Source: Candidatus Falkowbacteria bacterium (GTDB lineage: Bacteria > Patescibacteriota > Patescibacteriia > Patescibacteriales > UBA12075). From it: 64,000 nucleotides of DNA. Shown here piece by piece: positions 19,771-21,107 of the stretch; positions within the stretch are counted from its first letter, which is position 1; each line of letters begins with the position of its first letter. The translations under genes and the position numbers were made by a program. Where the stretch lies: contig JAZDLN010000029.1 of NCBI GenBank assembly GCA_043801965.1, forward strand, positions 1,587 to 65,586, given 5' to 3'. The notes beneath the pieces were generated by a model. The model was not told where the DNA came from, did not search any database, and saw nothing but the letters and a program-made list of their open reading frames with translations.

Positions 19771-19955
19771 ATCACACCTCCAATGTTAAATCTATTTATT
19801 TAAAAAGCCGGTGACCACAATTTAACACACCATCGGTATTTGTCAATTTATAAGGTTACAAAAAAATATGCGGTCCGTAGCTGTTATTATTATCGTATTT
19901 GTAAAAATTTAGCCAACAACAAACAAAAAATATCACTTATCCCCAGTATTTAGGA

Positions 19956-19984
19956 TTGACAAAATCTTCGTATTTTGCTACAAT
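19956..19984 (+). promoter_or_regulatory. Strong sigma70-like promoter
   Basis: TTGACA (19956-19961), exactly 17 nt, then TACAAT (19979-19984) with TG at the extended -10 position. Confidence 0.6.
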
Positions 19985-20113
19985 AAGAATAGATAATCAA
20001 AAAATACAAAAATACAAACAAAAATGAACGCAGTAGCTTCAATATCCCGAGCTGATACCCTCTTTATCGGCCATATCAGCTGGCGATATTACAATAAAAT
20101 AAAAAAGAAGGCA

Positions 20114-20347
20114 ATGGAACAGGAATTCAGCTGGTCTGGATTCTTACTAAGCATGTCCATTGCTTTTTTTATTGTTGTTGGGGGCGCTTTTTCGCTCAAT
20201 TTAATGCACGATTCGATACAAAATTCGCAAATCATGAAACAGCATAATATTATCTATATATTGGAAAACTCCAACGAAAACTACCTGCAGGCTGATCTTT
20301 TGAGCGAAAAACTGGAAAATCTCCGTTCTTTCACGCGTAACGCGTAG
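20114..20347 (+). CDS. Small single-pass membrane protein (hypothetical)
   Basis: ATG at 20114 preceded by AAGAAGG. One TM segment (FLLSMSIAFFIVVGGAFSL). The longer track ORF from 20024 includes a leader hairpin AGCTGATA-N16-TATCAGCT. Confidence 0.35.
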   Translation: MEQEFSWSGFLLSMSIAFFIVVGGAFSLNLMHDSIQNSQIMKQHNIIYILENSNENYLQADLLSEKLENLRSFTRNA

Positions 20348-20349
20348 TT

Positions 20350-20640
20350 TTTTACCTGATTTCAGTCCGTCTTAAGCGGTCTGAAACCAGTTAATAAACG
20401 ATCGTTTATTATCTGAATAAATAATGCGGCCAAGACTTTGGCGCCGCACGTAAAATCTTCATCTGGTTCTTTGTAAGAGGAACGCCCTCAAAATTCATGG
20501 CTGCGTCAGTCGCAGAACAACTATAAATCTGCCAACTACTAACGCAGCCTCCTCTTCTTTGCTTCACCAGCCGTCCGGCTGGCGGCGCAAAGCATGGGGA
20601 TGCTACTAAAACACCGCCGGACTCCATAAGCGGTGTTTTT
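20350..20640 (+). ncRNA. Candidate structured non-coding RNA or regulatory RNA, class unknown
   Basis: A chain of strong helices ends in a canonical terminator (AACACCGC-N12-GCGGTGTT + T5). No credible ORF is present. See findings. Confidence 0.5.
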
Positions 20641-20648
20641 ATATTTAG

Positions 20649-20676
20649 TTGACTTTTTGTTTTATTGTCTTACAAT
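20649..20676 (+). promoter_or_regulatory. Candidate promoter of the ASCH-domain gene
   Basis: TTGACT (20649-20654), 16 nt, then TACAAT (20671-20676). Confidence 0.45.
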
Positions 20677-20729
20677 ATAAGTACGTAACTTTAGAAATTT
20701 AAAAAACAAACAAAAAGGAGGGCTTCCCC

Positions 20730-21107
20730 GTGTCTTATCGCGAATCGCATAAAGTTCTGGTTTTTGCCGGAGAGCACTTTGAACCGACGCTATGGGGCAT
20801 AAAACAGATAACAATCCGCAAATACCGACCGGAAGCGCACGATTTTAAAAAAGACGAACTCGTGATCGGCGAATTCCTGAACGGTTATGACATGCTGCTC
20901 CAAATTCTTGCCGACACCGAAACGGTGCCGTTTCACGATTTGCCCGACCAAACAGCGCGGGAAGACGGATATAAAAACCGCGAAGAAACTTTTCTGGATC
21001 TTAAAAAATACTACCCCGACTTGACTAAAAACGAAAAAATCGCCATTATCCGCTATCGAACAGTCGGATATACGCCTTTGGGCCGCAATAAACATTACTC
21101 CGAATAA
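20730..21107 (+). CDS. ASCH-domain protein
   Basis: GIKQITIRKYRPE...FHDLPDQTAREDGY...IAIIRY follows the ASCH pattern (K-x-x-T-x-R, acidic/aromatic C-terminal half). GTG start preceded by AAAGGAGGG. Confidence 0.55.
   Translation: MSYRESHKVLVFAGEHFEPTLWGIKQITIRKYRPEAHDFKKDELVIGEFLNGYDMLLQILADTETVPFHDLPDQTAREDGYKNREETFLDLKKYYPDLTKNEKIAIIRYRTVGYTPLGRNKHYSE

Follow-up and report, generated by a model that had tools for sequence, protein, structure and literature searches.

What is the strongly folding stretch of DNA that follows a small membrane-protein gene in Candidatus Falkowbacteria, and to which gene does it belong? The segment occupies positions 20350–20640 of a 64-kb window (the whole stretch of DNA analysed here) from this member of the candidate phyla radiation (CPR), and lies between a small open reading frame (ORF) and an ORF with an ASCH domain. 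An initial annotation had described it as a terminator-capped, highly structured RNA of ~290 nt and of no known class, which could be a stand-alone RNA, an RNA derived from a 3′ untranslated region (3′UTR), or a cis-regulatory leader; the sequence, coordinates, and neighbouring genes given there were confirmed on rechecking. The analysis presented here favours, with a probability of roughly 60%, the reading of 20350–20640 as the 3′UTR, possibly processed, of the mRNA of a small class-wide membrane protein.

A conserved and covarying RNA domain

The plus strand of 20350–20645 folds to a predicted −100.6 kcal/mol, compared with −70.3 ± 5.1 kcal/mol for 200 dinucleotide shuffles (z = −5.98), none of which folds as well. 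An equal degree of structure is predicted for the minus strand (z = −5.77), and folding energy alone therefore does not give the strand. A search with the downstream SMC protein identified four related CPR genomes, belonging to Candidatus Falkowbacteria (94% SMC identity) and to Parcubacteria (58–60%). BLASTN and nhmmer searches with the locus show the candidate segment to be 91% identical in the close relative, and the best-conserved DNA in the distant relatives to be ~90 nt within the small ORF (81–87% nucleotide identity). A match to the 3′ end of the candidate was likewise obtained in one distant relative, L004, and the counterpart in L002 was recognised by eye. A common layout is shared by the four loci, in which a strong promoter is followed by an A/C-rich leader devoid of a Shine-Dalgarno (SD) sequence, the small ORF, a structured spacer, and a hairpin with GCAUGGGGA and a terminator.

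A degenerate DNA pattern drawn from the core of the ORF extended the family to at least 120 metagenomic loci, 67 unique loci of which carry CATGGGG in a recognisable module downstream of the ORF, and nearly every locus with enough downstream sequence holds one copy of the RNA domain after the small ORF. An RNAalifold consensus from 25 sequences, in which hairpin P3 is enclosed by helix P2 across an internal loop, was used to build a covariance model comprising P1, P2, P3, and the terminator. This model returns one strong match per locus, on the strand of the ORF, with scores of 51–130 bits (67 non-redundant full-length sequences), and its match at 20497–20640 (96.2 bits, E = 1e-21) is the sole one within the 64 kb. 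Strong matches are also obtained in loci that lack an exact CATGGGG, and the module is present in three loci recovered through protein similarity alone. It begins at a median of 151 nt past the stop codon, with a range of 20–621 nt.

Across the 67 non-redundant sequences, the module has 95.1% of its cells paired and changes on both sides in 23 of its 30 pairs, in an alignment that was fitted to the model. The 238 compensatory cells counted in this alignment compare with 15–53 when the partners are slid by 1–3 columns, and none of 500 shuffles scores as high. No coding signature was found in the module, the lengths of which are spread evenly over the three reading-frame classes (27/20/20 modulo 3), with open frames inconsistent in both strand and frame. 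The description of the segment as a terminator-capped, highly structured non-coding RNA thus holds, as do the conservation outside this genome and the covarying base pairs that had been named as its test. The proposed extent of ~290 nt stands in part: the family-wide core in the window spans about 20425–20640 (~215 nt) and contains five helices (H3, P1, P2, P3, and the terminator), and the 75 nt at 20350–20424 are lineage-specific hairpins.

A search of the whole window against Rfam 15, the families of which include tmRNA, signal recognition particle (SRP) RNA, RNase P, 6S RNA, riboswitches, leaders, and large non-coding RNAs such as OLE, GOLLD, ROOL, and raiA, returned no matches at the gathering threshold, in agreement with the earlier statement that the element matches no known class, and relaxing the threshold to E ≤ 10 over 19900–20800 yielded noise only. 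The Rfam scan of ten related loci found tRNAs only, permissive scans of L067 and L019 gave sub-threshold generic terminator or miRNA matches only, and ARAGORN detected no tRNA or tmRNA in the window. A literature search on structured RNAs of CPR and Parcubacteria surfaced no paper describing such an element.

In a divergent subgroup (L018, L021, L026, and L068), which scores only 33–47 bits with the model, the invariant GGGG and the terminator are separated by an additional hairpin (GGGGATTTAAAATGTTAGGGTTTTAAACTTTAGCGTTTCC..).

Elements of the domain

The elements of the segment, all on the plus strand, are described here from 5′ to 3′. Two hairpins follow the stop codon in the minimum free energy (MFE) fold, TTTCAG..CTGAAA (20360–20386) and CAGTTAATAAAC..GTTTATTATCTG (20388–20415), and both recur in L001 and, with changes, in L105, with other lineages having unrelated AT-rich palindromes at this position. 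The core opens with H3 (20425–20448), a TGCGGC/GCCGCA hairpin with a purine-rich loop (CAAGAC..). All six of its pairs show double changes, and its 40 compensatory cells exceed both the slid controls (5–12) and all of 500 shuffles; this is a count for the named structure, RNAalifold on the H3 MAFFT alignment having given no consensus (misaligned rows). A GYUCUUU box (GTTCTTT, 20466–20472) usually follows H3 after 5–12 nt, and after 17 nt in the window, with GYTCYTT or a near variant (such as GCACYTT or GATCTTT) present in 60 of the 64 loci examined.

The purine box AAGAGGA (20475–20481; AGGAGGA or AAAGGGA in relatives), which often follows the GYUCUUU box in relatives, is complementary to a C/U-rich tract further downstream. 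Matched purine/pyrimidine variants occur in several lineages (AAGAGGA/UCCUCUU, AAAGGGA/UCCCUUU, and AAAGGAA/UUCCUUU), with the family-wide signal being weak, as cognate duplexes of purine box and C/U tract average −6.5 kcal/mol versus −6.1 kcal/mol for non-cognate ones. Such a helix, which the initial annotation had listed, competes with the pairing of the C/U tract with GGGG seen in the consensus. Between the two partners stands P1 (20499–20549), a long GGCTGCGT/ACGCAGCC hairpin with an A-rich apical region and double changes in all eight modelled pairs. An insertion of ~160 nt resembling a miniature inverted-repeat transposable element (MITE), with inverted ends GGGRCTGTCRCCGAATGC, occupies the P1 apical loop in L010 (4935–5096) and L112 (3897–4058), and the apex is evidently dispensable since such an insertion is tolerated. 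In L087, L092, L113, and L060, the 5′ half of the module has given way to sequence related to this insertion.

The C/U-rich tract itself (TCCTCTTCTTT, consensus CUCCCUUUCCU; 20550–20560) pairs through its 5′ part with GGGG to form P2, in which 97.7% of cells are paired and all four pairs change on the pyrimidine side only, from C to U opposite G. P3 (20557–20592; CTTTGC..CCAGCC-GTCC-GGCTGG..GCAAAG) shows double changes in eight of nine pairs, with 92.9% of cells paired. It is followed by the invariant AGCAUGGGG (20591–20599), which forms the 3′ side of the internal loop together with its strand of P2, and which flanks this conserved loop jointly with the CUCYYUUUC tract. AGCAUGGGG is invariant in a MAFFT alignment of 50 sequences, a set chosen for exact CATGGGG, so that only the flanking AG is an independent observation. 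The domain closes with an intrinsic terminator (20611–20640) formed by ACACCGC/GCGGTGT and T5 behind an upstream A-tract, with double changes in seven of nine pairs; it has the GC-rich stem-loop and U-tract of this class, termination itself being predicted from sequence. Its 12-nt loop carries GGACUC in the window, and a GRACUCU motif is found in 40 of 67 modules. As judged from the alignments, three non-helical elements are conserved in sequence: GYUCUUU, the GRACUCU motif of the terminator loop, and the C/U tract that faces AGCAUGGGG across the internal loop.

Covariation among the 67 non-redundant relatives bears out three of the helices read by eye in the initial annotation, namely P1, the compound stem now called P3, and the terminator. 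The proposed helix at 20425–20448 is retained in its outer TGCGGC/GCCGCA part, with the inner CCAA/TTGG pairing specific to the lineage of the window, and TTTCAG..CTGAAA, whilst present in the MFE fold, is confined to the close relatives L001 and L105. Two further proposals are not supported. In the GCAT-GGGG-ATGC hairpin the GGGG is invariant, but its consensus partner is the C/U tract, and the GAUGC half lacks conservation. The suggestion that CTGCG switches between two CGCAG partners gives an alternative pairing of 4.84 bp versus 4.55 bp with shuffled loops, which is chance level.

Assignment of the domain to a transcript

Three observations on promoters bear upon the gene to which the domain belongs. 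Upstream of the small ORF, TTGACA-17-TAnAAT scores 10–12 out of 12 in nearly all related loci, and in the window the corresponding plus-strand promoter (19956–19984) is TG-extended, reads TTGACA-17-TACAAT, and scores 11/12. Immediately ahead of H3, the best promoter score averages 5.45, under the local background of 6.1, and neither a −35 element nor a TG extension is seen. Relatives have a conserved extended −10 (TGnTATAAT) between the terminator and smc, and in the window a promoter-like site on the plus strand (20649–20676, 10/12) would serve the ASCH and smc genes downstream; both promoter sites of the initial annotation are therefore present as consensus matches. Taken together, the lack of a promoter before the domain, the near-perfect promoter of the ORF, and the separate promoter of smc indicate that the domain is best read as the 3′UTR of the small-ORF mRNA. 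It comes after the stop codon and ends in the terminator of the same gene, with co-transcription read from the promoter layout. Of the three options originally left open, the 3′UTR is thus favoured over both the stand-alone RNA, for which no upstream promoter exceeds background, and the leader, as smc has its own promoter.

The extended −10 ahead of smc is seen in L015, L028, L029, L058, L080, L123, and others, and a GC-rich hairpin (e.g. CCCTCTTTAATTAAAGAGGG) often stands between it and the start codon.

A leader of the riboswitch or attenuator type, in which an aptamer-like domain sets terminator formation and thereby read-through from the strong promoter into smc or the downstream operon, would account for the terminator that ends the domain, for the start of smc 60–200 nt beyond it on the same strand in most loci, and for the invariant unpaired nucleotides of AGCAUGGGG together with the mutually exclusive purine/pyrimidine pairings. 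We nevertheless regard it as rather improbable, given the conserved extended −10 that intervenes between terminator and smc, the ASCH ORF with its own promoter-like site that intervenes in the window, and the absence from the consensus of any pairing that competes with the terminator stem as an antiterminator. Furthermore, the small ORF retains the domain in loci with no smc over the next 2–7 kb downstream (L106, L050, L042, L012, and L084), and L003 has smc but no domain. The defined terminator would equally suit an independent small-RNA gene that merely adjoins the small ORF, as would H3, a typical protective 5′ hairpin, and the AT-rich TATAAA-like sequence often found ahead of it. Such a gene would however need a promoter of its own, and the scores before H3 fall well short of the 10–12/12 of true promoters in these genomes; with the short spacing to the ORF stop, and a linkage that survives a 1.5-kb extension of the ORF, we judge this explanation improbable.

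The small protein with its N-terminal transmembrane (TM) segment, the heavy structure of the mRNA at both ends, and the SD-like AGGAGGA and anti-SD-like CUCCCUUU of the 3′ region could also point to a regulatory nascent-chain cassette of the SecM, MifM, or VemP type, or to a type I toxin, with the structure controlling translation through SD-like/anti-SD-like pairings. This is highly improbable in view of a C-terminus that is not conserved, a distance from stop codon to structure that varies from 20 to 621 nt, and the terminator and promoter that separate the structure from the next gene. Inspection by eye of a handful of loci, without a systematic scan, revealed no ORF suitably spaced behind the SD-like box, and the locus, unlike a mobile or multi-copy element, is present as a single copy and syntenic throughout the class. 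Hairpins clustered by chance, a repeat of the repetitive extragenic palindromic (REP) or MITE kind, or a protein-coding remnant would be compatible with two strands that fold equally well and with the 72-aa antisense ORF in the segment, but is effectively refuted: each locus, and likewise the 64 kb, holds a single copy, the domain is conserved in genomes whose SMC proteins are just 53–60% identical, its covariation is strand-specific and includes G-U pairs, and its length varies without 3-nt periodicity.

Several points weigh against the assignment to the 3′UTR. The loci were gathered through a DNA pattern of the ORF, such that modules located apart from the ORF would lie outside the reach of the collection. 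The proximity of smc, 60–200 nt past the terminator in most loci, means that the domain may have a role in controlling read-through into smc. The alternative pairings are weakly supported family-wide, and the fold prediction has the C/U tract engaged in pairing instead of free. In addition, one Falkowbacteria lineage, represented by L003 (1200–2100, reverse complement) and L102, has the small ORF divergent from smc with no 3′ module, an opposite-strand tRNA gene following the ORF in its place, and the domain is accordingly not indispensable to the ORF.

The small membrane protein and its coding region

The small ORF (20024–20347, plus strand) encodes 107 aa with one TM segment near the N-terminus. 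A protein homology search found an NCBI 'hypothetical protein' from Candidatus Falkowbacteria with 100% identity to it, and returned more than 200 homologue clusters, all 'hypothetical' and all from Falkowbacteria, Parcubacteria, or Patescibacteria. The family is marked by the motif ..GWKYYNxIKKKAMEQEFSWSGLxISLSIAFFIV.., followed by a variable tail with IYxLE. No precomputed Pfam domain is recorded on any of the more than 200 homologues, and a Pfam/NCBIfam scan of the window ORF and one homologue detected no family. Changes at wobble positions, K/R codon swaps, and a frame kept open for 44–140 codons across diverse relatives, with IYxLE retained, mark the ORF in these alignments as truly coding. 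Conservation is lacking at the C-terminal end that adjoins the stop codon, and the length of the ORF ranges from 44 to ~140 aa. The leader that follows the promoter (19956–20023 and its equivalents) is A/C-rich, AAAAACAAAAACAAAAUG-like, without an SD sequence, and conserved across the family; in combination with a near-perfect sigma-70 promoter, this would imply very high expression and SD-independent initiation.

In three loci the conserved N-terminal anchor, its nucleotide core included, continues into an extension of ~600 aa (L050 5050–6892, L091 343–2155, and L106 14–1754; coordinates in ORF-sense orientation, L106 being read as the reverse complement). The L050 protein, the one scanned, matches the SpoIID domain PF08486 (E = 1.4e-11), and the RNA module is still present 3′ of these long fused ORFs, beyond an extension of ~1.5 kb. 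A scan of viral contigs with the ORF DNA pattern returned no matches.

The coding region also contains a terminator-like hairpin (20101–20170, plus strand), composed of an A-tract, a GGCAATGGA/TCCATTGC outer stem, a GAATTCAG/CTGGATTC inner stem, and T7. Its 26 pairs are 98.7–99.8% paired, and it is nearly invariant across 78 diverse loci, synonymous sites included. Compensatory changes are seen at two pairs of the inner stem, where GAG..CTC becomes GAA..TTC (as in the window) or AAG..CTT, with one of these compensations costing an amino-acid change from L to F. The hairpin may act as a translation-coupled attenuator. It lies on the same transcript as the 3′ domain, and any link between the two is conjectural.

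A further stem, GCTGAT/ATCAGC (20051–20056 with 20075–20080; GCCAAT/ATTGGC in relatives), is found in the N-terminal coding region. It shows moderate covariation that involves amino-acid changes, with its outer six pairs 63–86% paired and alternating between AU, GC, and GU. At the other end of the ORF, a small ACGCG-TAA-CGCGT hairpin spans the stop codon (20333–20355) and is followed by T6, and a terminator scan calls it terminator-like; its ACGCGT half is apparently also present in L001, in an nhmmer antisense match read by eye.

Downstream, the ASCH ORF (20730–21107; Pfam ASCH match, E = 3.4e-5) stands between the RNA domain and the chromosome-condensation gene smc in the window, and in most relatives smc follows the domain directly.

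Discussion

If the domain is the 3′UTR of the small-ORF mRNA, transcription would start at the 19956–19984 promoter, proceed without an internal promoter, and end at the 20611–20640 terminator, with the separate promoter beyond it serving ASCH and smc in the window and smc in most relatives. The domain would then keep a highly expressed upstream transcript from running into smc, would give the mRNA a stable, exonuclease-resistant 3′ end, and could either serve as a platform that binds a trans factor or give rise to a stable 3′UTR-derived RNA. The recognition elements would be the C/U-rich, anti-SD-like tract and the invariant AGCAUGGGG, with GYUCUUU and GRACUCU as further candidates. Switching between states might proceed through three competing pairings, of GYUCUUU with the purine box, of the purine box with the C/U tract, and of the C/U tract with GGGG.

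Several other interactions were considered and rejected. A kissing interaction between the terminator loop (GGACUC/GAACUC) and GAGUUC in the coding sequence (CDS) is contradicted by the lineages that have GAAUUC instead (the window and L001, L017, L024, and L043), which keep GGACUC or GAACUC in the loop and compensate within the CDS hairpin (CUGGAUUC). UCCUGCU in the 3′UTR is complementary to AGCAGGA in the CDS, but when compared by eye the P3 strand varies between lineages and the CDS remains constant; the complementarity of GYUCUUU to the CDS A-tract is of low complexity only and, again by eye, shows no co-variation. The ASCH start offers a match (CCCCGUG) to AGCAUGGGG as a seed in 1 of 62 loci, that of this window, and the match is hence attributed to chance. 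As for a small ORF after the SD-like purine box, inspection by eye of a handful of loci, with no systematic scan, found only non-conserved ORFs of 2–10 codons at unsuitable spacing.

A more far-reaching reading, possible but put forward tentatively, is that the whole ~650-nt transcript works as a dual-function RNA of a new kind, found class-wide in Parcubacteria-type CPR, with constraint on the RNA at least equal to that on the protein. It stems from the near-invariant intragenic terminator-like hairpin with its U7, and from the five-helix 3′ domain with AGCAUGGGG and GRACUCU. Were this true, the 3′ domain would act as a regulatory or ribonucleoprotein RNA of a new kind, one that is anti-SD-like or sequesters a protein, for instance, and the SpoIID-fused variants and the fixed place beside smc would suggest a tie to cell-envelope or chromosome functions.

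The CPR, or Patescibacteria, represent a large share of bacterial diversity in which very few RNA elements have been described. The domain reported here is widespread and covarying, occurs at no fewer than 120 metagenomic loci, is tied to a protein family of more than 200 clusters, and has no counterpart in Rfam; the small membrane-protein gene to which it is joined is strongly promoted, universally 'hypothetical', and fixed in position upstream of smc. It provides an alignable target for addition to Rfam and for better annotation of CPR genomes, in which false ORFs such as the 72-aa antisense one would otherwise be called. Furthermore, it opens the question of how bacteria with reduced genomes use 3′UTRs and intragenic terminator-like structures for regulation.

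Comparison with known systems

Compared with the established classes of regulatory RNA, the domain differs from riboswitches and attenuators in that a promoter stands between the element and the gene, with no antiterminator pairing in the consensus. Its last 30 nt, a GC-rich stem between an upstream A-tract and a downstream U-tract, are those of an ordinary intrinsic terminator; unlike such terminators, it has a large loop (11–14 nt) with GRACUCU in the majority of modules, and ~185 nt of conserved covarying structure ahead of it. The small TM protein recalls type I toxin mRNAs, which encode a small hydrophobic toxin, come with an antisense RNA, and are typically multi-copy or mobile; the locus described here is single-copy and syntenic next to smc.

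SecM-secA, MifM-yidC2, and VemP-secDF2 are monitoring or arrest-peptide cassettes, with which the locus shares a small upstream ORF with an N-terminal membrane segment followed by RNA structure with SD-like and anti-SD-like elements. In contrast to these cassettes, it has no conserved C-terminal arrest motif, a variable distance from stop codon to structure, a terminator and promoter before the next gene, and as its neighbour smc, which is not a membrane-biogenesis factor. In the icaR mRNA of Staphylococcus aureus, a UCCCC motif of the 3′UTR pairs with the SD region of the same mRNA, and a C/U-rich anti-SD-like tract in the 3′UTR with purine-rich partners in the same transcript is likewise found here. 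Unlike in icaR, the leader is A/C-rich without an SD sequence, the purine partners (the purine box and GGGG) lie within the 3′UTR, and the complementarity between 3′UTR and CDS, examined by eye, shows no covariation. The resemblance to both icaR and the arrest-peptide cassettes is superficial.

The closest parallels are CpxQ, SroC, and DapZ, enterobacterial small RNAs derived from 3′UTRs, or structured 3′UTRs, that share the intrinsic terminator of the mRNA. As in these, the domain is located between the stop codon of its gene and the Rho-independent terminator of that gene, shows greater conservation than the coding tail beside it, and contains a short conserved tract that could be a seed. 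It differs from them in being larger and more elaborate (~215 nt conserved, five helices), in occurring in CPR bacteria, in having its candidate seed predicted to be base-paired, and in being known here from sequence alone. The domain is thus classified as a new, uncatalogued RNA family of a known general kind, that of the structured 3′UTR or 3′UTR-derived small RNA.

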